Positions 360 through 64,000 of a stretch of 64,000 bases of DNA are shown here, one piece after another. The notes under the pieces were generated by a model that did not search any database, was not told where the DNA came from, and worked only from the letters and a program-made list of their open reading frames with translations. The stretch spans positions 7,130,001-7,194,000 of the forward strand of contig OZ281501.1 of the NCBI GenBank assembly GCA_965637545.1, written 5' to 3'. The position numbers and the translations under genes were made by a program. The DNA comes from Phallusia mammillata (lineage: Eukaryota). Every line of letters starts with the position of its first letter. The stretch's first letter is position 1.

Positions 360-3300
360 TGGGTTGTGGATTTGCATCGCAATATGCGGGCAGTTGAAGC
401 CCAGTGCATAGGTTTCCAAGATCGACTGCGAAAACGAGGGGAAATTCTACATACATCCTATATCTATCACAAGTCCTCAGAACAAGTAACTAAACAGTGC
501 AAACAATTAATGCAAAAAGTAAAAAAACGAATACCAATACACTACTTAAGAAATATTTATCTAAAACTCATTTAAAACAACATTCTTCAAGGTTACTTTT
601 ACCCACATAAGTGAAACATTATGTCTAAACGAACTACTTTAAGTTCTGTCGGTTTTACATCCAGTACTTTGTGTTTAGATTTCAGCGGAACTTGACAAAC
701 ACTTGGAGATATGTAAAGTGGAGGCAAGTCTTTTAGACCCACTTGAAGCTGTACAAAGCAAACTTGACGATCTGCACCATCAACACGGAGTAGGTTAAAT
801 ATAACATTCATCATTTTCCCATGTGCTTGCTTGTGTGTAATTCCAGTGCTGGAAAACATTAGAAAGTCACCTAATTTAGGACAGACGGTTTACCGCTGAG
901 CCTGCGTAGCCAGCTGCTAGAGCGCGAGTCCCGTAAAGACTCCTGTCTTGGATTCAAATCCCACTACAGGCTAATTTTTTTGCCTACGACTTGTCAAATG
1001 GGAATGCTTGGTTACCGGCTGATTCGGTATGACGTCTTTAATGGGCCTGGTGTACTGTGATTTATGTATGAGTGTGCCGTGATTACTGGTCTTATAGTAT
1101 TTGTGTTCATCTTTGCTAATTTAGTAGCTATTTCTCTTCTTTTTTTGAAGAAAATTCGTCAACTTCACGAAACTGTTGTCAAAACCGCCACTTCGTTTCT
1201 TCATAAACTGGCGAAACACTCCCAGGAGCTACAGCATGATTGCGGGTTTGTTTGAATAAATGTTTCATAGCAAACTGGCTAATGATCTTAAAGTAACTAA
1301 ATTGTCTAATTTTATCTTCTATGTCAACCTATTGGTTAGTTTTAAACTTAAACCCTAACAAGTTTTTTAAAGATTTTCGAGACGTCTTAATAACCTTAAT
1401 GGACAAACATATCTTCCACCCTATACTGCTTTCATTGATTTATATTTTTTCATTGGTATTTCGGTTACAAACTGGCATAAACATACAACTCGTAAACAAA
1501 TGTACTCAATTTTCTCTATTTGCTCATGTGGTCAAATCAAACCAGTGCCAACGGTTTATGTTGTCTTTGTGTAAAGCAGCAAATTAACTTGCTTATCTGT
1601 ATCCTGTTTTGTTACAGTATCAATAAGTACGTGGTGCAAGTGCGCCACACCGTGGCCAACATCCAGGACCGTGTGAGGCGTTGTGAGGATTTTACAGAGT
1701 CGAGCAAAGTACGCCTTGAGCACGTGTTACAACTGCAAACTGCACAAAGAGACGTGAGACAAGTAAGTAATTTTTTATTATGCATTATATGAAATTTGTA
1801 GATTGTGATTGTGACTGTGATCGGTTGGTTTCGCAGGCTGTGGAGTGGCTTTGTGACGTTAGAAACACGATACAACAAACACACAGGGCACTTGGCAAAT
1901 CAGCCAAAGAAGTGGAGTTTCTGATCAGCCAGCACGCTAATATAAAAGTAGGTTGATCGTTACTATAATTTTGTGGCACAATACGTGTGGGTTGAACTAA
2001 ACTCGAATCAGCAGCTCCTGATTCAGCAGTATTGTTACGATGATAGTTGTACGGGATATTTTTAAACGTTGGTTATTGGTTAATATAGCATATCACGTTT
2101 AACGACCCTGTACATTTACCGTTAGAAATTTATACATTTACTAGCATTAGTGGCTATACCAGAGTTGTGAGTAAAAAAACGCTGTTTCGGGCTGGGTTTT
2201 TGGCTAGTTTTGGCCGGGTTTTGGCCCCAATTTTGGCCCCGCTTACAACTCTGAACTATACTTGTAATTAGAAAAGACACATGTCGTGTGCTTACTTGAG
2301 AAGTATCTTCAATTGATATTGGACTCTACATTGATTATTAGGCAAGCGCCAAGTTGGCATACGACAATGGCAACAAACATCTTTCAGCGATGTCTGTTCT
2401 GCGACGCTACCTCGAGTTGTCACCACCATTCGGCGCCCCTGCGTCACCCAAATTAAAACGGTCGAAAAGCAGGTAAAAAGAAATTGCATGCAGTTCATTT
2501 ATTTTATAGACATTTGCCATTGCAGCGTTTTCATATTTCGTTTCTTAACATTGTAAACATTTAGATGTTTTACGAGATAAACAACCCATATTTCTAGATT
2601 AAGTGTGTACAACTTTTTTGCTAATAACGGCAAACATTTGGCGATCTGCGTGAACTGTTTACGACGTTACCATATATTTCTCTATACTGTTGTTGCCTGC
2701 TTTTATGCATTATTTGCACGCAATCAGTGTACAAAAAAATGACATGTATTGGTAATGGCCATGTAATATGTATGGCTTCTGCCCCCTTTTAGCTCACTAA
2801 ATCCTTTCAGATTAGTTTTAGACTCGCAAAGAGTTCTAATTATATTACGGCTTTCATTGCATATATTTTAATACACAAGTTCACAGCCGCATAAATTTGT
2901 CGAAACTGCATAATTGTTCTTGCAGTGGACAGTTGATATCGTCAAAGGGGAAACTTCTTCCGACACTAGAGGACGCTTGGGAGGCTTTCAACCTGGCATG
3001 GCATGAAAGACGAAGTCGACTTTCGGTTGCTCGCCTCTTTCACGAGAATGTAGAACAGGTGACAACAGAAACCGGTATAACTGTTTGCACAGCAGACCGT
3101 TTGATACTTACTGGTTGTATTTTAGTTGTTTAAACGTGGATCCCAGTTGGAAGTAGATTTAGATGATGCTTATCCCACGTCTGCTCAAGTTCCCCAAGAC
3201 CAAATCACAAAACAAGTACGTTGAAAAAGGAATATAGCAAACATATTTTAACAGAAACAGTGTGAAAGTATCATAGTGTCACATCAAGTGTCATAGACAT

Positions 3301-4472
3301 TAATAGTGTGATGTCTTGCGCCATGTTGTCTTTCCCACAAACAGCCGTCGATTTACCTGAAACTTAATTTTTAGGAAGAAAAATTTAGGAGGTATCTTTA
3401 TTAGATGAGCTAAGCTGACCAAACTTAATACACGCACATAAAGCACATTAACAGCATTTCTGATTCCATGTTGTTTGATTATAAGAAAATGAACATTTTT
3501 TTCAGTTCTTTTAATAAAATTATCACAGACGTCGTTAACTCTCTGCATTATGTTATGTTAAAAACGATTACCTTAAAAAATTAGTAATTTGATTGGTGTA
3601 TATGCAGCCTCGGTTTGCGCCCCTGCGTGAAGCTCAGTACGCCTTCACTGACGATGTTGCTGACGTGATGAGGTTGGGTTGTAATCTTTTGCAAGTTATG
3701 GATTCTGACCAGACCGACGGATCTTCATATCGCGCGTAAGTTCATTGTAACAGATAGAAAAATTTATTAACATAAGTGACGGAAACTACATCTATAGGGG
3801 AGTTTTTCGAACGTTTAAATTTTATGATTTGCGGTTAAAAAAATAATAATAATAACATGCGGAATTCAAGTGTTAAAGAAACTTTGGGGTATATTTTGTA
3901 TTCGAAATCCACTAAAGGGCCAACTAAAATATGATTCCATTTTTAGCTGAAGTGAAGTCGATTAAAACACAGGCACTAAAACCGTATCGTGAATAAATAC
4001 AAATAGGAACAATTTTGCAATTGAAGTTACCTGATAAAATGAACACGTTGTATGTTTAATTGTAATCTTATTCGTAGTTCAGCTACTTTGTTAACTCAAT
4101 CTCATGTATAGTCCACTTAAAATAAAGTTAAATTTGTTGTCAACTAGAGTGAAAACATGAATTTCTTTCCGTCATCCTTGTTTTTCGTTTGGTGGTGACT
4201 AAAAATTAAAAAAATTCTCCACCGACTAATAACTTGAGCACTGCACATTTAGCTTTTGTTCCAAATTCAAATGTAAAAAACAATTTGTTACCTGATTTAG
4301 GCAAGACGGAAGTCAACAAACTTTGCAGATGATTCAGTCAAAAATGCAAGAGCTCGATCATCTCAAGACCTCGGTGAGAACTAAGTGGTGTCGGTTAAAG
4401 GGAGACCAGCTCTCCGATGTCAACATTCACAGAAGAGATTATTTTCCCAGTTGGGTGGAAGGCGTTAATGAG
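360..4472 (+). CDS. SESTD1: SESTD1-like spectrin-repeat protein, 3' part (5' end upstream of window); multi-exon
   Basis: Phase-consistent exons: 360-485, 679-789, 1151-1245, 1618-1762, 1837-1947, 2342-2472, 2926-3058, 3126-3215, 3608-3735, 4301-4472. The translation (NIQDRVRRCEDFTESSKVRLEHVLQLQTAQRDVRQ|AVEWLCDVRNTIQQTHRALGKSAKEVEFLISQH; LPTLEDAWEAFNLAWHERRSRLSVARLFHENVEQ) parallels the recalled C-terminal half of vertebrate SESTD1 ([26 protein letters not shown]...[56 protein letters not shown]). The last exon ends in a phase-0 donor, not a stop. Confidence 0.8.
900..1063 (+). mobile_element. tRNA-derived SINE copy
   Basis: tRNA-like head GCCTGCG...GGATTCAAATCCC...CAGGC, followed by a body (GGAATGCTTGG..ACCGGCT..TTCGGTAT...GGCCTGGTGTAC) shared with the 15208-15378 and 47499-47565 copies. 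Confidence 0.7.
2160..2253. mobile_element. Very short hAT-type MITE
   Basis: TIRs CAGAGTTGTGAG / CTTACAACTCTG; flanks ggctatac / aactatac (6/8 TSD). A related end GGCTTACAACTCTA occurs near 7817-7829. Confidence 0.55.
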
Positions 4473-5049
4473 GTGAAATATTGTGCATGCATTTTAGGTG
4501 AAACTTGTATATCAGTGTCATGTAGATTTTGTATAATTGTTTTTTTTTCCTGAAATTGTTCCAAAACAAATTTGTTTCCAAAAATGGCCAGATATCTAAG
4601 TCTGTATTTTTCCACAAAAAGTGTCGGAAAGAATTTAATGGGTTCATAGCAAAGTATGGGCTTTTACTCTCTGCCGTGTGCAAAAGAAAGCACTACCATT
4701 TCGGTTTAAAATAAATGACAAATAGTTTTTCCGTTGGAAATTTAAGATATCAAACCAATTTCCTAAATATCAGTACACAAGAGCTACAGACCACAGTTTA
4801 CGTGCACTCTGTGCTGGTCAAGTGTTAATAGCATAGCAAGGCATTTGTGAAACGAATTCCAGACATTTCAAAGTGCCACTCCACTCTGCTCACGCCCTAA
4901 TGAGGGCGACCAAGCGCAACCGCGCAGTCCAAGAAAACACTAACGTTACATTACGCAAACGCCAGAGCTGCCCATTACGAATAAATTTCACTGGACGCAG
5001 TGTGGTTAAGTGTGGTTTATAATAGATTTGATTGCTAAGATGCACGTTG

Positions 5050-5640
5050 TCAGATCGCTAGGGAAGTAATACTAAACGTCTTTGCCTTGGAAGGTATATC
5101 TATTTCAGATTGTGTATGTTTGGTTAAGTTGAGGAAAAAGGGCGTTTTAAGAAGTATACTGCTAAAATGTTGTTGATAACAAGTACAGTTGTTTAGAAAA
5201 TTTTATCTGACGGAATGTTTTACTGATTTCATTACACTTGTACCTCAGTTATTCATTAGTTTTTTAATTTGTATTGTAGTGTATAATGTTTCGAGATCAA
5301 AAGGCAGAAATTCAGTGTGGCCAAGTATGGTTTTCTGATATTGGTTTTCGTTTGTTGATTTGATTGTCAAGTTTTACGTGGTTAAACCGCTCGGAAAGTA
5401 ATATTGAATTTGTTGGCCCTAAAATGTAGACATATTTCAGATTATGTGTGTTGGGTTATGTTGTGCAAAATAGGCGCTTAAGAAGATTAGGTAATACTGA
5501 TATATAGTTGATAAACTGCACAGTTATAGCCAAAAATTGATTTGACAGATCTTTTAAAAAAGATTAAAAAATAGGCTTGCAACCTAGGTTGTCATTAATT
5601 TTTAAATTTGTATTTTACTGTCCAATGTTTCGCGTTAAAA
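5050..5640. repeat. Diverged tandem duplication, about 330-bp period
   Basis: GGAAGTAATA...ATTTCAGATT.TGT.TGTT.GGTTA.GTTG...GGCG.TTAAGAAG...TTTGTATT...AATGTTTCG occurs twice. Confidence 0.6.
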
Positions 5641-6182
5641 AAAGTTAAAAATAAAAAACAATTAAGAAGTTTACAACAAAAAAAGGTGAACTTAAATCCA
5701 AAGCTACGTGCCAAAATATTATTCGTAAAAGGAAAATTTTAAATCTTGTTTGTGTAGCATGGTATAGTCTTAACGGTTATGTATTTACGCTTTGGCATTT
5801 CAATCATCACTGTCCACGTGGTTATAATGGAAAGCCTCTGTTGATTTGCCAAATGTGTCCCTTGGGAGTTTCACCACATAATGCCTTAACTTCCGTAAGT
5901 AACATTTTGACCTCACACCCGCGTAACAGCCTGGAACGTGACGAGCAGAGCGTACAAGAAGGAAAGCTTAACTAACTTGAAAGCAGAAACGATAGCATCA
6001 TGGTCCTCATATAAAAAGGAATCAGACTAAATAAAGTTGTAACAGAAAAGTACGCGTATGTTTTTTTTTCATAAGTTTTTCACGAAACTGCAATATTGCA
6101 GAATTTAGGAGATGATAGTTACTGTTTAAGTTTGCTGTGAGAAAACAAATCCTAATAAACCATAGAGTCTGCATGATAAGTA

Positions 6183-6234
6183 AGCTACAGACAGTGCACA
6201 CCGTTTCGACATACAAGGCCTCATCAGTGCAGCT
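6183..6234 (-). ncRNA. Type I hammerhead ribozyme, intact core
   Basis: The minus strand reads AGCUGCA CUGAUGA GGC cuuguau GUC GAAACGG ugugca CUGUC UGUAGCU: 7-bp stem I, full CUGAUGA/GAAA core, 3-bp stem II, stem III ACGG/CUGU, and a GUC cleavage triplet. Confidence 0.85.
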
Positions 6235-6438
6235 GATGTCAAGACCATATTGCGGCACTCCAGTTTTTAACAGGCTGAAAAGCCATGACTCACAAAGTCT
6301 GTTCGTTCGCACAAACATCTTTTAAAAAACTACTACTTTTCTGTATATGTATTTAATTTTCTATATTGCTTTAACATAGGTAAAGAAAGTGAGATAAGGT
6401 ATTTAAAGGCAATGGTATGTTGACAATGTCTATGTGAA

Positions 6439-9400
6439 ATGTCTGATAAAGAATTTGCTGAACGTGGTAGCCATTCTCCAAATCAACTCGACCAAACTCA
6501 ACAGCCGCGTGAATCGTTTTACGACAACGTTAATCTGACCGAATCAACACTTGCAAATGTGAAATATCGCCCAACCCGTTCAACTGTACACAGAAATCGT
6601 AAACGGGTAGCAGGTGGTACTAACTTTGAACTTCAAGAAGCTGTGACAATGGAAATACAAAGCGATGTCCATGAAAGCGTTGAAACTCCTGACTCTGTAG
6701 ATGGTTGTAAACGGGTAAAATTCGAGTCAACGGACTATCCTAAGCCTAAATGTCACGAATTCAGGGACAGAAAGCCTACAGAAACAGATACAGCTGTTAT
6801 GGACGCTGAAGAGGGAATTAGATTAATGTGTCCATTGACAATTTCGCTCGATAACGACCCAAGCGTGAGTGAAAGTGGCGACTGGTCATACGAGGGTGAT
6901 GTGGTTGGTCATATTTGTGTCCAGTCAAACGCTGGCCAGATTGGCGTGGACGTTATCAGTGTAAGTGGCTGCGCCTGTTAACGGGATTCGGATTGCATCA
7001 TGATGTGTTTATAGAGTGACATTTATTTTGAAAACGTAGCTGTAACTTGCAATGATTAAAACCTGTTGACGCCTTTGTTAAGTTGTCTTCCAACTAAAGT
7101 TGCTTGACCTTGTGTTTTGTAATTCATAAACTGCATTTATAGAAAATTCCATGTTGGCAACAATTCCAATACAAACTATTCTTCAAATCAATGCTGCAAT
7201 AAAGAATTAGTAGCATGATGGCAGATGTATTTGTTTATAATTTCTTTGTTGTGTTTACAGTCAACGGATTGGATTCGTATGAAGCTGGTTCAGTGTACAC
7301 CGAACGCTTTCGACATCGGCAGGAACTTGAAAGAGGCCAAGAAACTACAAGTTCAACACGAAGAACTTCTGCAAAAAATGAAGGTTTAAGAAATATTTTT
7401 AATTGTATAAATGTTAAATTCACAACACGCTTAAAGATAGTTTAGCACAGTAAATCTCCCTTGGCAATTGGTTTCTTTTGTTAAATTCTTTATTCTATAT
7501 ATGGTTGATTTCAATCGTTGCACAATTATTAACGTGTACTGGTTAAATTAATCTGAACAAAATCCTGAAATGCATGCAGGATAAGTCCCTACACGGCCAG
7601 CAAAGAAGTGTGTATGCCTAAACCTATCATAATTGGCTACATACGAATAGCCCAAACCCGAAAGTACGAGCACAAAACCCAGCCCGTAACCGATTTATAA
7701 AAAAACAAACCCGAAAGTCGGTGAAATTGCGGCACAAATGACCGAGTGTGTATAGTCAGTCTCGAATCAAGCTCGTTTTATTGAAATTTTGAACCCGAAC
7801 ACTGACCTAGAATCCCGGCTTACAACTCTAGTTTAACAAACTGATAAATATGACGACCTTACAAGCACTTTGTGTTCGCTGTACAGGAAAAGGAAGATGT
7901 GGTTCTAGCTCTTCTCGAAAAAGAACAGCAATCGGAAACGATGAACGACAGCTCCACAGTGAAGTTCACATCTCAGTCTTCAGTTACTTACAGCAGTGAA
8001 CCAGGTTCGTCCAATGAGCGGAAGATGCACAAAGCGATGAGCAAATCTCTATGTGACTTGTGGCGGGACTTGAACGGTCTGCTAGCACGGAGACACACCC
8101 TGCTTGGAAAGTCTGTTAATTTCTATGATGCCGCTACGAAGGTGGGAAATGAATTTTGTAAATTACTACTGCATGCACGAAATAGAAATACTTTACGAGT
8201 ATATAGAAGTATAAACGAATAGTTTTGGAATCTTGGTATTCGATTAAACCAGGTTTTTAGATTGCGATAGTTCAGGCCGCGTTAAAATATATGAAGTCTA
8301 AAGATCAACCTAGATGTTTTCTAAGAAAGTCAAGTTTCTGTTACTGAATTTCGTATTGTGATTGGACAAAAGTTCAGTAGCTCCATATAAGTATTATCCG
8401 CTCTGTCTTCAAACAATAAATTCAATTCAATATTTTTCGCGATTACTATGAAACATTGTTTCTTTAACTATTTTACCTCAAGAAGAAACGGTTTTGCTGA
8501 TTTAAGTTGCATATGTCTGTGTACTGAAATCCGTCTGCAATTTTCACATATCCTTAGTTCTCCAATCAATTAACATGCATGGAGCAATACCTAAAGTGGG
8601 AGGAGCTGCCTGCTGATCGCGCGAGCGCCGAAAGTTTGCTTGTGACGTTACAGGACATGCATGACTGCATGCTCGATGCGTCAAAAGTCTGCACTAATTC
8701 AGGGAGAGATTTGATGACGATGCTTAAAGCTTTGAAAGCAAATCATCCCGAAAGACACAAGGTAAATGTGTTTGAAGTGCAAATAATTTTACCACCATGT
8801 TTATGAAAGTGTATCAATTTTTCATCATGTTTACTAATGTGGGTAAAAAGTCCTTCTCAAACTTGTTAATGAGCCACGGATATGAACTGATTAAAACCTT
8901 TCATGACTTTTCTATCATTAAAACGAAGAAAAGTACTTGCGACCAGGGAGTCGTATTGTTTGTCATATATGTTCGGTTCGGTTCGGTACAGGTTTTGCGA
9001 AAAATACGTTTTCGCTTATGATTTCAATTCTGGCAAATCACGCTCTCCCAAACAGTTTGGGTTTTGTTCCGGTTCTGGAAATTTATCCGGTCCAAACCTT
9101 GTTTGCGTTCTGCGTTAGCTCTACATATTCGAAAAGACCTAAATACCGAACAAACAACAACAAAAAATTAGCGTGGTCCTTTACAGCAAAATGCTCTTGT
9201 TTTCCCATGTTTTAATAAAAATTACCAACCCTCAAATCAGACATTCTTAACCACACTTTTGTTTCAGTTGAGTTTTGGAAGCGCCTGTGCTGCTATTGAA
9301 TGTACTCTCGAATCGTTGGTGGAAAGGAGAAACCAGATCGAATACAGATACGACAAGAGAATACTTGAACTTGAACACGCGCTAAAAATCAGGGAATGGG

Positions 9401-12400
9401 AATGTGAGGTTGATCAGGTGGGTTTGCTTTGAATATCTTACGCTACCTGAACGCAAATAGGCATTTGCTTGTCCAGATTTTAGCCTCGAAGTTATTGATA
9501 TCGCGGCAGACTTTTACACATACTTCTGCATGCAGGCCATTTCGGGTAGAGCTAGTGTAATTAACCTCTAAGTTAAAACAAGACAAAATGAATTTAGGGA
9601 AGTCTAAAATATGTTTAAGTTGGGCGTTACTTTATATTTTTACTTTAATGTCCGTTTGTGTACCACGTTTTACCAAAATAATATAAGCCCAGTGGTGGGA
9701 TTTAGCCGATTCGCACCGGTTCTATACAACCGCCTCACGAAATTTTGTGAGATCAGCGGATCGGTTAGCATTACTGGTTACTTTCAATGGATTTTTGCAT
9801 CTTATCTGATGCACTGATTTTTGAGATCCGGCTAAAAAATATGACTTTTGTGATAGAATCGGCTGACAAAACAGTTGAATCCCACCACTGTATAAGCCCC
9901 CAATTTCATATGACTGTTTTTTATGTTTATACTTACACTAAATTTTGACGTGAAGAATATTTATTGTACTTACCTACCAAATTACAGTGCTACTAATGCG
10001 AACAGTGGTCTGTTCTCTTGTGGTAAATACGTATAGTTTTACTTTGGACAAATCTTAAAACCACGACTCTGAACCTTTTGCTATTAGATTGTTGATTGGT
10101 TCGACCACACAAGGGAAGTTGCCTTGGAAGATTCGGAACTTGGCAGCGGGAAAGCTCGTACAGAAGCCATTCTATGTCACCTCGAACAAGTTAAAGAAAG
10201 AGCGCAGGTACGACTCTTGCAGAAAATGTGCCTTTAAATGATCTTTTGTAGTAACATTGGTCATAGCTTTTTCATCTTCTAAATTATTGTTGTTGTTTTC
10301 ACGGTTTAGCCTTAGTTTTAAACCGGCTTGGAGGTTCGGTAGGAGGCTGAGCCGGTCAAAGCTAGTTTGAAACTGGATTATTCCGGAAAAAAGCTTGTTT
10401 TTCTTCTGTTTTTTGAGCCACAAAAACTTCTGAGTACAACTTTATTTATTTTCAATAGGATAAATTAGAGGAAGCAAAGAAGTTAGTGGGTCACGGGAAA
10501 GAAGAATTAAAGGCGTTCGGAGCGGACCTCGTTTCGTCCAAATCTACGCTACTTGATGAGCTTGGAGAAAGTTTCATGGAAACACTAGACTACCGCAGAG
10601 ACGAACTCACATCGGTTGTGGCTTTTTACAAGCTTACTGCAGAGGTATAAACTTGTAAAAGCTTAAAATCAATAAATGATAAGCTGTAGACAGTGAACAC
10701 TGTTTCGACCTATAATGTCGCATCAGTGCAGCTGGAGACAGGCCGTATTGGCTAAAGTGTAGTCATTCAACACAACTCCAGTTTGTTGGAAGTAACAGGC
10801 TAAATGCCATGCCTGACCTATTCTGTTCGATGCCACAACTGGGTTTAAACCACAGGTGAACTGGCTCCTAATAGCTACACTAACCAATACGGATTATCTA
10901 GCTAGCTGCACTGGTGAGAACTTATAGGTCGAAATAGTACACACTGTATGCGGGTATAAACTTATTTGGTACAATATCTTTACCTGGATAAGGGCTACCT
11001 GATTTTTTTGTCCTGCGAAACGTCTATACAAAAAATCCAGATTAAAAAACGCCTGTTATGCTCGTTTGGACTCAAACGTACTAGACCAATAAATTGTACT
11101 GAATTGTTGGAAATGCATTCAGGCTGAATATTCTTTGGAAGAAATCAAGAAAAAGTTGATGCTAGGCAAATTCTCACTTCAGCGTGACGAAGCGGATGAA
11201 CAGTACAAGAGATTTACATCGAGTATTGTGGCTGCATGCGAACCTGCTTTGCAAAAGGCAGATTATATCATCAGTCCCAGGTACACTGTTATAAACAATG
11301 TATAAATTCAGGGTGGTTTAAGATTAATGGCATCGAGGGCCACTTTAAGGATATGTATAAGGTAACTTCAGGTAATTTTAAAATCGGTTGAGACCAAAAT
11401 CTTTTTCTCATACTTTGAAAAATTTAAGCAGTTTATTTTTTTGCTGTAAGTTAAACGCCTATTTTGGTGTATTCTGTTTGTTTCTAATTCTGACGAAAAA
11501 AGTAAACCGTTGCTTGTAAAGAGTTGTGACTATTGCAATCCATTTATACACTGCCGTTATAAAATTGCATTCTAAAGGTATTTGCGAGCCGCATAAAATG
11601 TGCAAGAGCTTGAACCACAATATTGATTATTGCAAACCCTTACCGAATGAGATACCAAATGGTTTTTCTAACATGGATACTAATGAATGGAATAAAAGTT
11701 TTGTTTATGCTTAAAGAGATGATGACGGAATGGAAGGTGTGGAAGGCTTGCTTCACGCCAGGGATAGGATATTAAGGTCACGTGATGATCTCCTCGGAAT
11801 CATCAACCGTCATAGAAATGACGCAAACCGAATCGAAGAAATGATGAAAATCTTCTTTCAGAATTGTGACCAAGTAAGTTTGGTTTTATGAATGAACCTG
11901 TCTGGCTTAAACTTGCACAAAATGGTTTTGAAACGTTATGAAGACTATTTACACTCTTTGGTGTTTTTATATAGTTAAAGAACTGGACATGCGAAGTTGC
12001 GGAAGGAATGCTCTCCACCAATGGAGTAATGGGAAATAATGTTCAAACTGCCTCACAGTTCCTTGTGTGGCATAAACTCCTTGCCCAAGACGTACAGGTA
12101 ATCTACATGTAAAATTATTTTACAACTATCTGGCATTAGCTTTTCTTTATGTCAGTGCAAGGCACTGTTAAAAAATATATACAGAAATGCTTGCATAGTT
12201 TCAAACTTACATACAATTGTCAAGTATTTTCCAGTTATTTTCGGCTGATGTTGATAAAAACTGTAAATGTTGTGCAGTGGACGATTAGGGACTGAGGTAT
12301 AGGCATTTGGCCCCCACCACTAGAGGGGGGCGAGTCGCCCTATTGCCCTATTGAGTGTTTTCGCTCTATCAACGGCAGTTATGTGTGCATACATATGTGC

Positions 12401-15400
12401 AGAAATGGTCCCTTTGTAAGCTTCAGCCAAGGTACTTGTACAATCTAATCCCCCCTTGCTGTGCCTAAATGCGACAGCCATTATTGAAACCGAAAGAAAT
12501 GTTGTTATTGTTTAATCTCCCGTTATAAGTCGTAACAACTTATCTTATAGTACTGTTTATTACATTTGGTTAGATAATAAATGGAAACCAAGCTATTTAC
12601 ATATAAATTACTGTGCAACTGCAATGATTTATTTTGATATTATGTTCAGGGCAAATCTGAGGATCTAGAAACCCTCGTAAAAACAGCGAACGAATTGCTT
12701 GATGTTGGAGTGAGCAAACCGGCCGAGGTTCGTGATCGGGCAAACGAAATTAAGGAGACCTGGTCAAGTTTGAATTGCAAAGTTTCACAGCGAATTAAGC
12801 TCGCTAACAATTTTGTGGAATTCCTAAATTCAGCTGACAAGGTAAAGGTCTTTAAATTAATTCGAAAACGGCTGTAAAACATTTATACTTCCAAAAAGTT
12901 TAGTGGCTAATTGTTTTTTATATTTAGTAATCATTTTGTAGTACAATACGCAATTATCGAATTTAAACATTCGTATTTTTTGATATAAAACATTTAAACG
13001 TTTTAAACTATTTGAGCTATTGGCCTATTGGCCTTTTGACATCGTCGAGCGAAGTAACTGTTTATGTTGGTTTTATATACCCGATCAGAAGTCAATTTTA
13101 AAGCGTCAGATCATTTTTGCAATTTACAAACAACAGCCATAAATCTTTTCACATAAACTGATAAGAAATTAATAATTTATCACCCCACAAAAGATGTTAG
13201 ACCTAATTTATGGACCATTGAACCACTAACCCGAAATCGGATTTTTTTGTCTTGGGAAACGCATTTTGGAAACACTATTTTACCGTTTAGGCGTACGAAG
13301 AAATGGAGGTGGTCCGGGGAAAAGTTTGGGAAAGGAAGCAATGTAAAATCGTGGACGTTGCGCCACAGGTTTTGAAAGAATGCGAAAACTTAGTGAAATC
13401 TGTCCAGGATTCATGCTCAGCTCTGAACGACCAAGGATATTCAACAAATGCCCAGCTAAAGGAAGGTATCTCAGGTAACAACTTATTCATTATATTTTTA
13501 CATATTTAGTATAATATCAAATACAGAAAACCTAGCTTAGTCCGCACCCGTTTTGACCCAAAAATGTCCATATCAGGCGAAGACCTGGATTAACCGATAT
13601 ACCAGAAAAGTAAATCTTTCTTCAGTAGTTTAGCATTTATGGGCTTAAACCTTGAACAGGTGGTATGTATTTAGCTCTTATGAAACAGCAGTGTTTCCCT
13701 TTCAGGCGACTCGTTTGATATAACGGGTGCAGTGGAAAAAGTTTCCGAAACACTGCGCAACGTTCATCGGAAGAAAAGCGAGCTGATGGACGTGTGGTTG
13801 TCATGGAGGTATAAATCTGGAGTGAGTATCGAAACTGATGTCCAGTGGAAGCAAACTGAAAAGACAATCAACAGAGTAAGTGCTTGTTTCCATTCTGTTT
13901 TATTTGTTTGCAAATTAATCAAGTTACCGAGTTTTTGTGCTAGAGACGAGACGAGGTAAAACTTTAAAACTTTTACCAAAATACAATTTAAATATGTGTC
14001 TAAACGTAATGCCAATACAACTCTATTAGCTTTTAAACACCAATTTTTTTAAGTCAACTTATTAAACAATTGGAAAAAAGTAATGGTTATACTTGCTTAT
14101 GCCGCTTATGAGATGGTTAAACTTGCTAGAGACGAGACGAGGCAAAATTTAAAGTGTTACCAAAACACACTTCAAGTTTGTGTCCAAACGTAATGTCAAG
14201 ACAATTCTATTATCTTTTAAACACCAAAAATGACTTTTTTGGAGTCAACTTATTAAATAACTGAAAAAAGAATTAAACCTCCCCAAATTTGATAACTGTG
14301 GCTTGAAAGCAACATCACATTTCTTTACATTTGTGCATCTGTAGCATTTCCCCATACTGTCGCAATTTAAGTAAGATCTTTTGTCGTATTTGATTTTATT
14401 TCTTTACTCAATTGTATAGGACAGTGGACACATATATAGACGTTTCAAACTTCAAAATTCTGCCCAACACTTTAAAATTTTACCCATTTTAAAATACATG
14501 TGGATTATTTTTTTAGCTAATGGCTTCGCTGGAAAATCTCGAGCAATCGGTTTTCATAAACGAAATGGTTTTGCTCGGAGAAGACGTGGAGTCAAATCAG
14601 GAGTTGTTGGAATCTCTCAAAGATAGACAAACTCTGCTTCAATCCATTCACGGAGAAATAGAGAAAACTGTGGCGGTAAAGTTAAAACAATGTGTAATTT
14701 TTTTAGTACTATATAACTTTATTAACTTATTCAAAAACATTTTGAGCGCTTATAGGGAAAAAAGTATTTGCTACATATTATGGATTTTTTTAATAATGTT
14801 GTTATTTATAACTAATTACCAAAAAATCCTGGGCACTTTTAGGGAGAAGTAATTAAGTAACTTACTACATTTTCGTATGATGGAGACTCGGTAGTGTTTT
14901 TAATTTAATTTTAGTGTTTTATCAATTTATTATTAATTAAGTTCATTTTTTACTTTGCAGCATTGTGAGATGATTGGTCTGCGAATTTCACAATTCACTT
15001 GCATTGATAAATCTCCTGAGAAAGGATTTGGAGAAGAAGATATGGAAGAGCAAGATCCGATCAGAAGAAGGATCACGGCTCTTCTCACTAGATATCAAAT
15101 GCTTAACACCAGAATGAAACATTATAAAACAGCTCTCACCGCAGCAGGGTGTTGCCACGAAATGATTGTACAGGTAAAAAAATGCATTTTTACATGATAG
15201 AGCAACGATTATGAATCAGTTAAAGTACGCCAAGCTTATCAAAGGCGCTATGCCGAGTCAAGCAGGTCTCCAAAGCATTCCTATGTCGCATAGCATTAGA
15301 TAGACAACCTAGCCTGCGGTGGGATTCGAACTCACGGCGGGAGCCTTTCCAGGGCTCCACCTATTGAGCTACACAGGCTATCGCTGGTCTGTTTTCACTC

Positions 15401-43700: not shown

Positions 43701-46029
43701 AAAAATTCCTGAGTTATAAGCAACTGTGGTGCTAAAAATTTCCATTTTCGTGCAACAGGTGTGGTGAGCTGCAGATGTACCAACTCGCACGGTCAGGTCC
43801 AAAGCTCGTGTACTCTCATCGTGAAAGAGGAAAAGGGTCTTGTCGTAGGAACCCAACTTCCTGATACTGGAAAACTTGAGAAGATAAACACTACAGAAAA
43901 ACACAGACAAGCGGTAGGATACCTACCATAAAAATCATAATTCTGTACAACCATGAAGCTTATAGCAATAAAATATTTCAACTTAAATTTACCCCCATGA
44001 GACTACTGCGTTAAAGAAACCCAGAAAAACTTAATTTAACTTCCAAATATACCAAGGGGTAAACGTGGAAAAATAGGTTTCGAAACGTCAATTTTATGAT
44101 AAAACTGCTGGAAGAGCAATATTCGTTTATACATTATGCAATAGCTTATTTATAAGTTTGGACTATTTACAATAAACAATAATTTGAACAGTTCGATTTC
44201 CAAAAATATGAAATTTTATGTGATATTTTTCAGCTTTCACTTGCTCACGATCACCCTGAAGTTGACGACACTGAAGTTAGATCGGCTCCTAAAATCGTCC
44301 TGGCTCCTGACGCACTTCGAGTCCAGGAAGGTGAACCTGCCAGGTTCCGTGCACGCGTCCTCGGTTCTCCACTACCTAAGGTCACATGGTATCTGAACGA
44401 AACTTCAATCCGACCAAGCAAACGGCAAGTCTTCAATTTCTTTGTATCAATACGAAAAAGTTCTAGACAACTAAAATATTGATATGAATCTTTGCGAAGG
44501 CAAAAATGTATGCGTGTCGTTTTTAGCGAGAAAGGCGAATATCATTTTACGGTCACATTCAATCGTTCTATATAAATGGGGAGCTAATAAAAGAATATCA
44601 AAAAAGTAAAAATAAAATCAACGACAGATATTTGTATTTTACTGTGTTAAAACGGCCATTTTTAAGTATCAAAGGCGTTTTATATCAAGATGAGAACAAA
44701 TTAATAGAAATTAAATTACAATTCCATCTTTGACTATGTATGATTAAGCAGAAAAGCAAGTACTATTATTATTTTGCAATAAAAACAGGAATGTCAAAGC
44801 TATTCAATAACAACTTTGTATTTTTCGCAGATTCCGTATCTGGTCCGATGGAATTCATTACTTCGAGATTGCCACAGTTCGCGGGTACGACCACGGTACA
44901 GTGCGGATGGAGGCTGAAAACATTGAAGGCAAAACCGAAATCACAGTAGCCATCGAGGTTTGCCAGGCTGAGGACATGCGCTCTGTTTTGCACAAGGCTC
45001 AAATACCTAAGGGCAAAACCGATGTGAAGACTTCTCTCGACACCAACACCCTAAAGCAATACCGCATCAATAGAAATGTTGAAGAACAAGTCCGAGGTAT
45101 GTGATTTCTATAGTTCGCTGCAACGTTTTTGAAACAAAACCTAAAACAAAAAATTGCAGCAAAAAGATTTTGTGAGGTATAGCTTTTCAGCCTTTTTCTC
45201 CTAACGAACTGAAGTACCATAAAGTGGCCACATTAGCTCGTACGGTCAATGCCACCAGCTGCTGCACTGATGAGACCTTACGGGTTAAAACAGTGTGTAC
45301 TGTCTGCAAAAACGTTCAAAAAACTTCTCCCGTAGTTTCAAACGATTTTTATATTGCGAGGAATTCAAAGGTATCGATTAGAATTGTGACAAAATCTTTT
45401 AAATGGATTTTCTGTTTTGTTGCAGAGGAGAAAGGCAAACAGATGATCACTCTTCGTGAGGTGGAAAAGCCAATCGCCGGAATCAAGAAATTGAATAAGG
45501 TTGAACGACACGAAGAACTGCAGTCGAAATTTTCCGAACTCTCGGAAGAAGAGCGAATGCTTAATAAGCTCGAGGCGGACAAGAAAAAGGTTCCATTAGT
45601 TCCAATAACATAGATAAAATGGCTAGAATGGACTATAGCCTCCCGCGACGTATATGTAAAGCAGTTTTATTTTATCAAACTCGTTTTTTGTTTATAATTT
45701 TCCTAACGTTATATCAATGCGTGAGTAATTATTGTGTATAGGCTAATTGGTTAAACAAATCTTGTCCATGTATTTTTTTTAATTTTCCCCGAACGTGTGT
45801 CAAATTTCTCCATTACGACAAAGTACACAATTATTTTTACTCTAAACAACGTCCACAACTCAACAACGTTTCGTAGAGTTCGAAACGCGATCGTCAGTAC
45901 GAGTCCTTCATTCGTAAAACAAAAGACGAACTTTCTCATTGGGAGAAACCACCTGAGCCCGAATCACCTAAACTTCCCTTCTTAAGGCGACCCCGAGAGT
46001 CTCTACCGGCCCCGTTTATAATAGACCAG
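28785..46029 (+). CDS. TTN: Titin, Z-disc region (Z1, Z2, SP-rich inserts, further Z-disc Ig domains, linker to I1); multi-exon
   Basis: Exons: 28785-28941, 29431-29631, 30035-30159, 30520-30682, 30813-30967, 31351-31494, 31562-31702, 32084-32578, 33467-33544, 33744-33873, 33958-34112, 34310-34410, 34484-34875, 35187-35300, 35562-35691, 36053-36235, 36653-36765, 40941-41105, 41528-41696, 41952-42189, 42628-42777, 43258-43369, 43759-43913, 44234-44424, 44831-45096, 45426-45589, 45877-46029. Titin-specific matches: PRFIQPLQSVVAVEG (Z1), GAEIRNSGDFQIRCEGDLYSLTIVEA (Z2), DAWYTATAVNKTGRDLTRCKVNVE, AHFECHIVPIGDPTMKVEWL, YESFIRKTKDELSHW. Confidence 0.95.
39910..40711 (+). CDS. Candidate alternative first coding exon of an internally initiated titin isoform (267 codons)
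   Basis: A 271-aa ORF in an otherwise ORF-poor 4.2-kb intron, with an in-frame TGA four codons upstream of the ATG. The AAG|GCAAGT donor at 40711 is phase 1, matching the acceptor at 40941. Confidence 0.6.
45261..45308 (+). ncRNA. Degenerate hammerhead copy (GAAA changed to AAAA) in a titin intron
   Basis: GCUGCA CUGAUGA GACC uuacg GGUU AAAACAG ugugua CUGUC UGCA. Confidence 0.6.
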
Positions 46030-59300: not shown

Positions 59301-59645
59301 GTAATGGTTTTATCGACGAGCCTGTTAAAGGTTTAAACTCTCAAATGTTTTGCCAATATCTGATATACCTTAGCGTTAAACATCACAGATTCGTTGTAAT
59401 TACTTTAAAACATAGTAAATCATTTGTAAGATTTCTATTAGGCAACATTAACTGTTACCCCATATTTTACATGTCTATTTGTTGTTATCTGTTTTATTAA
59501 CATAACGATATTTTTATTTTCTCGTTGCACCTTTCGCTGTTTTCATTTTATCTTTCACACATTGCATTGCCATTTTCCTGTTTACCCGCCTTTTTGGTAC
59601 TTCACAAAAAAACATTTTTCATTGCGACTCATTTATGTGTCCTAG

Positions 59646-62600
59646 CAGTTATGGCAGCGAGTCAAACCCAAACTACCGAACCATTTAACACAATACGCAA
59701 ACCTAAACCTGCCCCTACTCGGCACATAAGCCACGTAACGACCAGATTAACCAAACCTTCTCCACCAGTCACCCCTACAGACATGTCACCCAGTCATACA
59801 GGTGAAGTCAAAAGCATCCCAGAGTCGCCAAAACCAATGCGCGGCCTTTCGATTCGTTTTATTCCGATGGTGACCACCAAACAGGATTCAATGCGCTCTT
59901 CTATTCGATCATCCACTGCACCGACAAAGAAGAGAGTCTCGTTCTCCGCGGAGCACGATCTTGTTCTCATCTCACCGACCTCGCCTCCGCTTACTCCCTT
60001 TAGCGACGATGATGATGCATTTGAAGAAGATGAAGATTACGAAGAGGAAGAGGCCGGGACTCCTACAATAGAGAGCCAGTTGCTATTGCAGAGGCAGCGA
60101 AATGTACTCTGGGATCAGGAAGACGAGCGCCATACGCGAGGACTGACCACATTGAAAATGAAAGTAAGGGATGCTCGCGAGTCGCCCGATCTGGTTGACG
60201 TTGTTCTAAGGCGTGAAGATCTTCATCCTGCAAAGCCAAATGAAGACGCACTAAAGGTGGAGGAAATACCAACTCAGAAAACTTACTCGCGTGGAGTACA
60301 TATTGACTTAAAGCGACAAGAACCGCAACCAGCTCAAGACAAGCAAACTGTGACTGAACGGAGAGACGTGTCTCGTGCCGAAATTAACGTATCCGACAGG
60401 CGACCCTACCCTAAGGTTACCGCCGTGATGACTAAGCCAAAAACATTTGAAATGCACGAAACTGAAAAGCAATCCACGGGTTCGCAAATCACTGGTCCCG
60501 GTACTGCTTCTACCGAAACACAGACTCAAGTTAAAACGAGGCCTACCTCTATGCAAACACGGCCAGACGTCGAGGCAAAGCAAACGTCTACCGATAGTGG
60601 GGTTGTAGCGAAAACACAGACGCCTTACCGTCGCACATCGGCATCTGAAACACAAACCCAGATGAAAACTTATCAAGGAACGCAAACTGAGGTTGCGACT
60701 TCGAAAGACTCAAAGTCAATGCAAACGGAATTTTCAACAGAAAAGGTTTTGCAAACTGCTACAGATGCCCGCAAAGCACCTGCAACTACCTCAGTTCAAC
60801 AGAACTTAATACAAAAGCCGACAGGCGAGAGGAAATCTGCACACGCAGAAATCCGCTTAGGCGAACAGCGAGCATTTTCAACAGTCACTGCAACAGTTGT
60901 GTCGAAGTCAAAGCCTTCTGGTATGACGACCCAGCTTTCTGACACTGCTGAAATTCAAACCCAAACACGGACGGATGTAAAAACAGAATCGACCCAAGCT
61001 ACACCAGCTGTGCGGACCATGGAAGTATCAACCCAGCGAAGGGAAGTTTCATCCACGTCCCAAACTCCTTCCCGACAAAGTTCGACGATGGAAACGCAAA
61101 CGCAAGAAAAAGTGTATAAGTTGACACAAACTGATATGAAACCTGCTTCCAGTGCAAAAATGATGCAGACCGACTTCACAGCAAGCAAACAGTCACAAGC
61201 TACTTCTAAACGAAGAGCTGGACATGAAATTGATACCCAAACGGACAAACCAAAATCAGATCAAAAGACAAACGTACACAAAGCTGAAGTTATTAAACCA
61301 GAAATCCCGGAAACGGTTAAGGCACCTGCAAAGCAAGGTATGAAACATTTAGAAATACATGCTGTCCATAAGCCTGGAATTAAAATTACACAAGTTGCTA
61401 CTAGTTCTGAGCCGGAGCATTTGGCCAGAACCAAGCGTATAATGAGTATCATAGATGCAACTGGGATCCAATCTCAACCAGAGACCAAACCAGGATCAGT
61501 ACAAGCGACACCAGACATGGGCAGCAGGGAAACTACAACAGAAGATACTGGTGTAGAGGCGAGAACTCAAACACCAAAGCATCGCACTTCTGTGACTGAA
61601 ACGCAAACTACTATGCAAACTTATGGCCAAACACAAACTGATGTTGGGCCAAAGACTGAAGCTAAACTGCTTCAAACCGAATTTATGTCGACCAAAGTAT
61701 CCCAGACCACAGCCGAGAGGCCGAAAGGTCGCGAGATTGATACGCAAACTCAGTTCGTGCTGACTAAAGCCACAATAACTGATGCTGAACCAAAGAAAAC
61801 TAATATCGCTATGGTAAAGATCCTTGAAACGCCGGAGGTGCCAACTTTTATTTCCTTTGTCGACAAAAAACAGCCAACAGAAGTCTCTCGAAAAGCTACA
61901 GGCACACAACCAATAAAACCTGAAGCTAAAAGCAGTGAAACTCAGACCCAACTTGACAAGACGGCCAGTGCTACCCAGGCTACACCGACCATTGATACAA
62001 AGGAAACATACACTGATACACAAAGCGTGGAAGCACGAACACAAACACCAGCAAAAGGGGCAACGTCCATGGAAACGCAAACGTATGAGAAAACTTATCA
62101 GACGACTCAAACAGATGCACCGTCCAGAAGAGATGCCAAACTTACCCAAACGCAGTTTACTGCTACAAAGGTATCACAGACTTTAGAGAAAGCGAAAACC
62201 GGGCGCGAAATAGATACACAGACCAGTTTTGGTGAGAACAAGGCTTCTGTATTTGCGGAAAAACCTTCTACACAAAAACGGCAACCGGAACAAAAATTTA
62301 AATCGCCCGAAAAGAAATTGCAGACTGTCAAAGTTGTTGAGGTCACATCGACTGAACTTCCAAAATTTGTGACTGTTTCGGGTGAAACAGCAAAGAAACA
62401 AGACAAAGGTCCTGAAGAAACCCGGGCGTTGACACATACTATGGAAGCTGCAGAAACCCAAACTCAAAAACAGGCGCTGCTAAGTGCGCAGATGATGCAA
62501 GAGGAATTGAAACAACAGAAACAGACATCTGGACCGGAAAAGGTTTCTCAAATTCAAGTTACTGAGGTTACCAAAAAGAAGTCTTTCCGAAAAGACGGTA

Positions 62601-64000
62601 GCAAGACTTTTGCTCTCCAGGAAACAATTGCTACACAAAAGGTGTGGAATCCAATTACACGAGAGTTTCAGGAGGTATCGGTCGAACAGAGCGAAATTTC
62701 TAAAGCCCCACAAGGTGTCCATCCAACTGAAAATAAAGTTTCACGAAAGTCTCAGGAACGCAAAGAGGAACTGCAGCCTGATTCTGGTGCCATTCAGCCG
62801 ATCGAAGTAGTTCGTGATGTGCCTTACAGAGCCGAGAACCTTGAAGTTGCCCATAAGCAACATTCTGTCAGCGTAAAGTCCGATGATCGGACGATAAAAG
62901 TTACGGAAACGATAACGGATACTACGAAACGTGTGTGGAACCCTAAAACGCGACGCTTTGACGAAATTCGTACCATAGAGGTATTGAAAGATGACTCCAA
63001 AATCAACGAACCGCAATTGGAAAATATTAGTCAGAAGACGAAAATTGAAGAAAAACAAGTGACACCATCTGACCGCAAAGATGAAACAATTGTCACTGAA
63101 AAAATGCCTCCGGTAGTATTGCCGGCCAAACAACTCGAGATTCAAAAGACTAAACTTGCTTCAGACGAACAAATTGATACGGACCACACCAAAAAAGCTG
63201 TTACGGAAAAGAAAGAAGTTAAGAAGACCAAACGGGTTTGGAATGCTCGAACTCGGAGGTTTGACGAAGTTGTGATTGAAGAATCAACACACGTTGTGAC
63301 CGAACCTGAAGTTGTTGTCAAGAAAAAAGCTCCCAAGAAAGATGAAACTAAGGCTCCAACGATCACCACCGAACCTGTTATTGAAGCTCACAAACGCGTT
63401 TCGGAGTCAGACGAAAAGGAAAAGAAAACTACCCAGAAGCTGAAGGATATTTCTAAACTGCCTCAGCTTACAAAGGCCCTAGAAGAAGAAATTACACTTC
63501 AACCTAAGAAAGACACTCCAAAAACAGCAACACAAACAACGATTAAAGCTGTAACTGAAGATGTTGTAAAGCCAAGATCACGAGACGAAACTCCAGTTGC
63601 GGATGACAAACCTGTACAACCCATTGCGGACACACCAAAGGTTTTAATTAAAACCGATTTGCAGAAAGAACCGGTATCAATGCCTACTAAACCTGATAGC
63701 GATCAAAAACGTGTTATCAAGGAAGTGGTTGTAGCAAAAGGAAAATCAACTGAAGTGCAGAAAAAGAACAAGACGAAAATGCCGGAATTGACACAAGCAC
63801 TTGCCAAGGAAATAGAAACTACGAAAGCTGTTCAAAGCAAGACTACCAAAGAAAAATCGAAGGTAGTTGAAGATGCGATTCTGCCACAATCATACAAAAC
63901 AGTTGTGGAACCACAGGAGGTTCGATTAAACGTGGAACCAAAACCAGAAGTCCATGAACCTAAAACAAAGTCAGAAGCCAAGAAACCTGGAGCAAAACTA
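59646..64000 (+). CDS. TTN: Titin giant unique exon (>1450 codons, T/K/E/P/V/Q-rich, predicted disordered), open to the window end
   Basis: Acceptor cctag|cag at 59645, phase 1, in frame with exon 58878-59300. Manual translation from codon 59648 to 64000 shows no stop. It is probably absent from the ORF track because no stop lies in the window. Composition becomes PEVK-like toward the 3' end. Confidence 0.9.
60500..62230 (+). repeat. Four ~100-aa TQT-rich coding repeats in the giant titin exon
   Basis: Units at about 60500-60775, 60941-61246, 61454-61756 and 61922-62230. Approximate consensus: ..ETQTQ..TQATP..VEARTQTP..S.ETQT..KTY..TQTD..AKL.QT.F..KVSQT..GREIDTQT. Confidence 0.9.

Follow-up and report, generated by a model that had tools for sequence, protein, structure and literature searches.

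An intronic hammerhead motif in Phallusia mammillata lies in a truncated copy of a 282-nt repeat with Penelope-type insertion scars

We analyzed a 64,000-nt stretch of the Phallusia mammillata genome (hereafter, the window) that contains a hammerhead motif on its minus strand. The motif belongs to a dispersed and tandemly arrayed hammerhead repeat and is not specific to the locus. We hold with high confidence that it forms the 3′ terminus of an aged, truncated insertion of a noncoding 282-nt retrozyme that lies antisense within an intron, was likely copied by a Penelope-like element (PLE), is predicted to misfold, and is probably inert. At this locus, the finding is of little import, since the motif is part of a fossil copy among thousands. 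The young copies elsewhere in the genome provide a clean footprint tying a noncoding hammerhead repeat to Penelope-type integration. The coordinates of the features considered are collected in Table 1.

Table 1. Features of the window discussed in the text.
Feature	Position	Strand	Details
Type I hammerhead motif	6183..6234	-	Stems I, II, and III of 7, 3, and 5 bp; 4-nt loop on stem III
Predicted cleavage site	6189..6190	-	After C17 of GUC; position from alignment
Family fragment	6173..6318	-	5′-truncated, internally deleted, aged; monomer about 120-282 plus 13-17 nt past cut
Second family insertion	10644..10963	.	Two arms, head to head, with the long end on the left and the short end on the right
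Third family copy	45198..45308	+	More decayed; two core changes
Host-gene intron (long isoform) with fragment	4473..7260	+	Contig joins and AG/GT exon
ATG-led ORF	6439..6960	+	Ends at in-frame GT; skipped in isoform seen

The hammerhead motif and its repeat family

When aligned with a young member of the family, the window motif retains 14 of 14 core positions. On the minus strand, CUGAUGA is located at 6227–6221 and GAAA at 6207–6204, stem I is formed by seven pairs between 6234–6228 and 6189–6183, and each of the three helices (7, 3, and 5 pairs) includes G-U pairs. All the hallmarks of type I are present: CUGANGA/GAAA/NUH, the G10.1-C11.1 pair, three helices, and an open helix I. In the established hammerhead numbering, C17 of GUC corresponds to position 6190, which places the cut between 6190 and 6189. 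The initial annotation, made from the letters of the window, had described the complete core, the three pairable stems, and this cut, and it was correct on all these points. Its description of the ribozyme as intact is true of the core; elsewhere, five non-core changes distinguish the motif from young copies (three pairs have become G-U, the fourth pair of stem II is lost, and loop 2 is altered). The palindrome GUGCAC that it placed in stem III is indeed there but is off the symmetry axis of the stem by one base. Stem III is self-complementary over its full 14 nt (duplex energy of −19.6 kcal/mol) and is predicted to form either a 5-bp hairpin or a 14-bp dimer helix with itself.

The bare CUGAUGA..GAAA pattern occurs three times in the window versus 1.09 expected, and at least three matches were obtained in 12 of 100 shuffles; the bare pattern alone is therefore within chance, i.e., not significant, for the window. 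With the full core descriptor, 629 exact matches were found in the 240-Mb genome and none for the reversed pattern, which rules out a chance motif; among the matches listed, the first 100 of the 629, all look like the same family. In the Rfam scan, no hammerhead reached the gathering score. At E ≤ 10, only Hammerhead_3 was listed (16.5 bits, E = 4, cutoff of 48.5); the Hammerhead_1 model, named by the initial annotation as a check, gave no listed match. When the 6175–6245 segment was folded alone, the z score was 0.06 and the hammerhead fold was not obtained.

A search with the 6000–6400 segment yielded 41 matches centered at the hammerhead (the best 40 of 304 candidates scored), while a younger copy used as the query gave 2506 first-look candidates, with top matches mostly 93 to 98% identical. 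Young copies are 97 to 99% alike. Tandem arrays have a period of 282 nt and contain up to about 4.4 units, one array of young units lying at G000:C6:2903525-2904693; the unit has a GC content of 49%, its longest ORF is 53 amino acids, and its predicted circle is well folded (z of −2.8). To estimate the size of the family, we counted nine hammerhead-bearing copies in 599,800 evenly sampled bases, which corresponds to ~3600 copies genome-wide [95% confidence interval (CI), 1650 to 6850]; the sample, sixty evenly spaced 10-kb pieces, is limited in size, and one of its alignments (L124) is weak. With noncoding tandem units within the 150- to 450-nt range, a type I hammerhead, and target site duplications (TSDs) longer than 4 bp, the family fits, as judged from sequence, a non-LTR retrozyme. 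Unlike the tandem members, the window copy stands alone and comprises only part of a unit. Pol III A/B-box–like words were spotted by eye in the 282-nt unit, and at one locus, a 404–amino acid integrase-like ORF of an LTR retrotransposon [L025:1851-3062 (−), by eye] adjoins a repeat copy.

Type I hammerheads have been listed earlier in a tunicate genome, according to the available text of PMC8704543. The term “retrozyme” paired with tunicate terms was not found among the top-ranked literature matches listed, and such ranked lists are not proof of absence.

Insertion scars and Penelope-like elements of the genome

Young copies terminate at either of two 3′ positions past the cut site. A first set of 33 loci, selected by similarity to the full unit, contained 22 two-armed (head-to-head) insertions and 11 loci without both arms detected by the script. 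A 10- to 14-bp target duplication (76% AT) was found at 18 of the 22 two-armed loci; in a cross-locus control, none of 462 pairings reached 9 bp, the best being 8 bp. All 18 insertions combined one short end (+2 to +11) with one long end (+33 to +39), with a median offset of 28. Since the first set was selected by full-unit similarity, a replicate set of further loci was drawn: 40 loci, mostly perfect-core, from the core-pattern list on C1-C2, or 38 after two duplicates were dropped. Fourteen of these were two-armed, 10 with 12- to 16-bp duplications; the short and long ends were paired in 10 of 10, again with an offset of 28, and about five additional short-plus-long cases were recognized by eye. 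In both sets together, each of the 28 duplication-bearing inverted insertions (TSDs of 10 to 16 bp) has one arm ending near +7 and the other near +35. Inverted arms with a 30- to 40-nt tail on one end, the scar of PLE mobilization, were thus seen in 28 of 28 cases, with an offset of 28. Four two-armed loci per set lack a duplication; among the exceptions, L302 seemingly has two short ends and no duplication, and L283 and L288 have a shorter arm that stops upstream of the cut. We rejected a MITE interpretation of the inverted copies because the 3′ ends of their arms are fixed but unequal, and the 5′ ends vary.

Opposite arms diverge at 2.1% of sites, compared to 1.1% for the same arm and 3.5% for different loci, which points to a common source of the two arms while falling short of proving a single RNA template; at L040, the arms differ at a segregating site. 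Nearly all arms extend back across the scissile bond. In the first set, several arms start close to the cut site, and 5′ ends in the replicate set also cluster at other hairpins. By eye, the inverted insertion at L021:1476-1800 (G000:C2:27798866-27799196) has a second arm of only +1 to +10 and a main arm that also starts from +1. In L021 and similar arms, cDNA run-off at a ribozyme-made 5′ end is suggestive only, since the first set is biased by the query and 5′ ends of the replicate set cluster at other hairpins.

The genome contains 148 GIY-YIG matches, and our PLE sample comprised 39 loci around them, with 16 pLTR regions. Of six long ORFs, five carry RT and GIY-YIG hits, with RT above the cutoff in four and GIY-YIG below the cutoff in that scan; single ORFs with RT and GIY-YIG reach 973 amino acids. 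These ORFs may belong to a Poseidon-like clade. A PDB search with a PLE ORF gave no match. Several families with RT plus a C-terminal GIY-YIG, a distinctive C terminus, and short-stem-III hammerheads are represented at L076, L084, L088, L093, and related loci, and some RT and GIY-YIG families form exact 3.3-kb tandem arrays (G000:C8:5.588-5.602 Mb). The pLTRs of the genome’s PLEs carry their own, different hammerheads with a short stem III.

In one PLE family, 12- to 14-bp duplications are present in 11 of 18 inverted insertions, with the same short/long pairing. The ends of this family are near +38 and +69, offsets are 27 to 35 (median of 31), and the duplication is 13 bp. Therefore, Penelope machinery likely mobilizes the 282-nt repeat. 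Ends of the second and third PLE families were poorly resolved; a clear duplication was seen in 2 of 12 inverted copies of the former and in 0 of 7 of the latter. The comparisons single out no driver family: the 282-nt unit has no significant similarity to the 16 sampled pLTR regions (one distant-flank hit with z = 2.8 was disregarded), the repeat tail matches none of the three PLE families significantly (P = 0.067 for the best match, 0.72, and 0.89), and the repeat and the family with the same scars are close but unequal in offset (28 versus 31) and duplication (12 to 13 versus 13 bp). An RT/GIY-YIG ORF bounded by the repeat was not found at the 39 PLE loci or at 60 repeat loci with their flanks.

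The fully PLE-like geometry of insertion would also be expected if the 282-nt unit were itself the pLTR of an unsampled autonomous PLE, or had arisen from such a pLTR directly by deletion, and the window copy were a solo 5′-truncated pLTR. The PLE complement was sampled in part (39 loci and 16 pLTR regions), which leaves room for such an element, and in the available text of bioRxiv 10.64898/2026.07.22.740005, 24 of 57 Xenopus retrozyme families are homologous to Repbase transposable elements, mostly PLE pLTRs. However, the repeat forms pure tandem arrays, free of ORFs and reaching about 4.4 units; none of the ORFs of at least 150 amino acids near 60 loci (1.5-kb flanks) is PLE-like by eye; the 16 pLTR regions show no similarity to the unit; and the PLE hammerheads of this genome are short-stem-III types, unlike the motif studied here. 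We therefore consider a pLTR origin unlikely and a noncoding retrozyme mobilized by PLE machinery the better reading. Mobilization by a LINE through L1-type twin priming, rather than by a PLE, is very improbable: inverted arms and 10- to 16-bp duplications in AT-rich targets are textbook features of L1 too, but the repeat lacks a poly(A) end and has two fixed internal 3′ ends, one on each arm, and a PLE family of this genome has the same geometry.

Known systems and a possible route of integration

The initial annotation placed the motif beside minimal type I hammerheads of metazoan PLEs and retrozymes. As defined in the available part of PMC4209133, these lack helix III and have a helix II of 7 to 8 bp, a helix I of 4 to 5 bp, and an extra nucleotide after A9. 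The family shares with them the catalytic core and a stem III able to pair as a dimer; in contrast to them, it has a full helix III (5 bp), a helix II of 4 bp, a helix I of 7 bp, and no extra base after A9, so the term does not apply. The assignment to a family of retrozyme/PLE type was right as to the family, which is a repeat with Penelope-type scars, while the motif is of the retrozyme type and of canonical size rather than a PLE minimal hammerhead.

Metazoan non-LTR retrozymes of coral, mussel, and axolotl, as far as they are described in the available texts (PMC7229834; bioRxiv 10.64898/2026.07.22.740005), resemble the family in their noncoding tandem units of 150 to 450 nt (282 nt here), GC content below 50% (49% here), single type I hammerhead in each unit, copy numbers in the thousands, TSDs longer than 4 bp, co-occurring PLEs, and well-folded predicted circle. 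The family differs in its 5-bp helix III, the usual length being 1 to 2 bp, and in that no pLTR homology was found among the 16 sampled pLTR regions. Inverted two-ended insertions with a tail, as seen in the family, are not described for retrozymes in these texts (the word “inverted” occurs 0 times in the available text of PMC7229834). Overall, the family is a further retrozyme of the metazoan type, for which cleavage and circular RNA are predicted only, and the window locus is an ordinary one. Cleavage was observed in one of nine elements assayed in the work available in part as bioRxiv 10.64898/2026.07.22.740005.

Endonuclease-positive PLEs (PAc, PMC11167929; Adineta Pen2a, PMC3846280; PMC8557442), again as described in the parts available, share with the family head-to-head 5′-truncated arms, a tail of ~30 nt on one arm only, short TSDs, AT-rich targets, and a hammerhead immediately upstream of the 3′ ends. 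Unlike them, the family has no ORF, its hammerhead is not minimal, and its short end falls inside stem I or directly after it. An inverted pLTR with a 31-bp tail on one copy and a 9- to 10-bp TSD is described in the available part of PMC3846280, and tails on one end only are reported there and in that of PMC8557442. According to the available text of Frangieh et al. (PMC11167929), a Poseidon protein cuts and extends both strands and prefers AT-rich DNA, its main substrate is uncleaved or unprocessed RNA, and the PLE tail is explained by two adjacent internal RT start sites.

A retrozyme life cycle consistent with these data would start with transcription of the tandem arrays, whose RNA hammerheads would cut into monomers that may circularize. 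A PLE protein would make a staggered cut, about 12 to 13 bp apart, in AT-rich DNA, and the two DNA ends would prime reverse transcription at internal sites ~28 nt apart, near +7 and +35. Because almost all arms run through the scissile bond, RNA that is either uncleaved or re-ligated would serve as the template. The inserted copies would then decay neutrally.

In our estimate, the chances are even that the repeat, as an invertebrate retrozyme for which pLTR homology was not detected, hijacks a Penelope-type protein by means of two internal start sites 28 nt apart; an asymmetric, probably dimeric RT/EN would then prime both ends of a 12- to 13-bp staggered break on uncleaved or circular RNA. 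The asymmetry and the probable dimer are suggested by the use of exactly one start site of each type in each inverted insertion (28 of 28). In the available text of bioRxiv 10.64898/2026.07.22.740005, retrozymes are derived from PLEs on the basis of co-occurrence and pLTR homology; the link between such repeats and Penelope elements is proposed there and in the available part of PMC7229834, the mechanism being left open. If the hijack occurs, the scars described here constitute direct genomic evidence for retrozyme integration, which has hitherto been argued from co-occurrence and homology. Together with the long-ORF PLEs of the same genome, the putative 282-nt RNA and its two predicted start sites make the retrozyme life cycle testable in the in vitro PLE assay already published.

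The window copy, its decay, and the host gene

The window fragment, of ~150 bases, ends near the “short” end of the repeat, with the hammerhead as its 3′ end; no target duplication was found for it, the best candidate being 6 nt. The second insertion in the window lies between the two copies (at 10644 and 10953) of an 11-bp target duplication and has the layout of the two-armed insertions elsewhere in the genome; both its cores are damaged.

For the window copy, the hammerhead fold has a predicted probability of 1e-4 when the motif is folded in isolation, which drops to 1e-8 to 1e-10 once flanks are included; for a young copy, it is 0.015 to 0.15. The corresponding fold penalties are 5.6 kcal/mol in isolation and 10.7 to 13.3 kcal/mol with flanks for the window copy, compared to 1.2 to 2.6 kcal/mol for the young one; these energies are nearest-neighbor predictions, which are blind to tertiary contacts and protein help. 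Among 78 core-intact copies, the window copy has the ninth worst penalty (11 kcal/mol versus a median of 3.3 kcal/mol). It is predicted to misfold because the five non-core changes create competing helices. The window copy is thus probably largely misfolded and inert, though protein help or dimer formation could alter the predicted fold. The initial annotation suggested that the ribozyme may retain activity, for which a lone, truncated, antisense unit with a fold probability of 1e-4 or lower offers poor support.

In the random sample, the mismatch level was 16% in the core and 18% outside it, and the full core was kept in one of nine copies. Since decay is no slower in the core than elsewhere and one in nine sampled copies is intact, survival of the core in the window needs no selection. 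Covariation was assessed in 64 distinct copies, out of 67 found, all from one genome: three cells changed on both sides, and 426 of 500 shuffles scored as high. Covariation across genomic copies, the lack of which the initial annotation had counted against a ribozyme, was thus not seen in these 64 copies; since this is expected of neutrally decaying copies, the reading of the family as a ribozyme family stands unrefuted. Overall, neither conservation of the core nor covariation is seen among the dispersed copies, which fits neutral decay after insertion. In the L116-L175 copies, the core CpG is the most often mutated core site (G to A in five of nine, C to T in two of nine), a pattern that suggests methylation-driven decay.

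Contigs from three runs of one study, which we guess to be derived from spliced RNA, join exon 4301–4472 to position 7887 with 123 nt between, and this gap fits an AG/GT exon at 7261–7383. Further upstream, there are exons at 1617–1762 and elsewhere. The contig join and the 123-nt exon place the motif within an intron of a long gene. The initial annotation had it antisense and upstream of a CCDC141-like first exon; the orientation was confirmed, but the location is intronic, with exons upstream. The likeness to CCDC141 was not confirmed: a homolog search with one exon gave no match, and an atlas look-up returned weak spectrin-repeat leads. An I-set immunoglobulin (Ig) domain lies farther downstream. 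The ATG-led ORF, ~200 nt (about 120 to 270 nt) downstream of the motif, is a possible alternative first exon. Contigs from other copies stack on repeat bins, and the ORF is uncovered; neither was counted as evidence. A bacterial promoter scan was uninformative at this locus.

The intact core (14 of 14 positions), the compatibility of three stem changes with G-U pairing, and the candidate first exon about 120 to 270 nt downstream of the copy are what one would expect if the window copy were kept functional, with an antisense RNA from a promoter near 6439 self-cleaving at 6190/6189 in a regulatory role. This is highly improbable: an intact core is expected in roughly 9 to 17% of copies without selection, the predicted fold penalty is 5.6 to 13.3 kcal/mol, and the motif, being antisense in the intron, is unable to cut the pre-mRNA in cis. 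An inert fossil of the 282-nt repeat remains the preferred reading.

Several other features of the window were observed. A giant multi-exon gene with coiled-coil/spectrin-like exons, Ig-type domains, and a titin-like layout extends across 1–64000 (+); at 59501–64000, after the Ig-type domains, there is an open frame of at least 1500 amino acids rich in T/Q/K/E repeats. At 9690–9890, where contig depth was very high in four of four runs, there is a MITE-like element, presumably hAT-like, that has terminal inverted repeats of 13 bp and a flanking duplication of 8 to 9 bp. A tRNA-Ser(GGA) was called by both ARAGORN and Rfam at 15310–15389 (−), and a tRNA-like sequence lies in a high-depth bin at about 895–970 (+); both are possibly tRNA-derived repeats.
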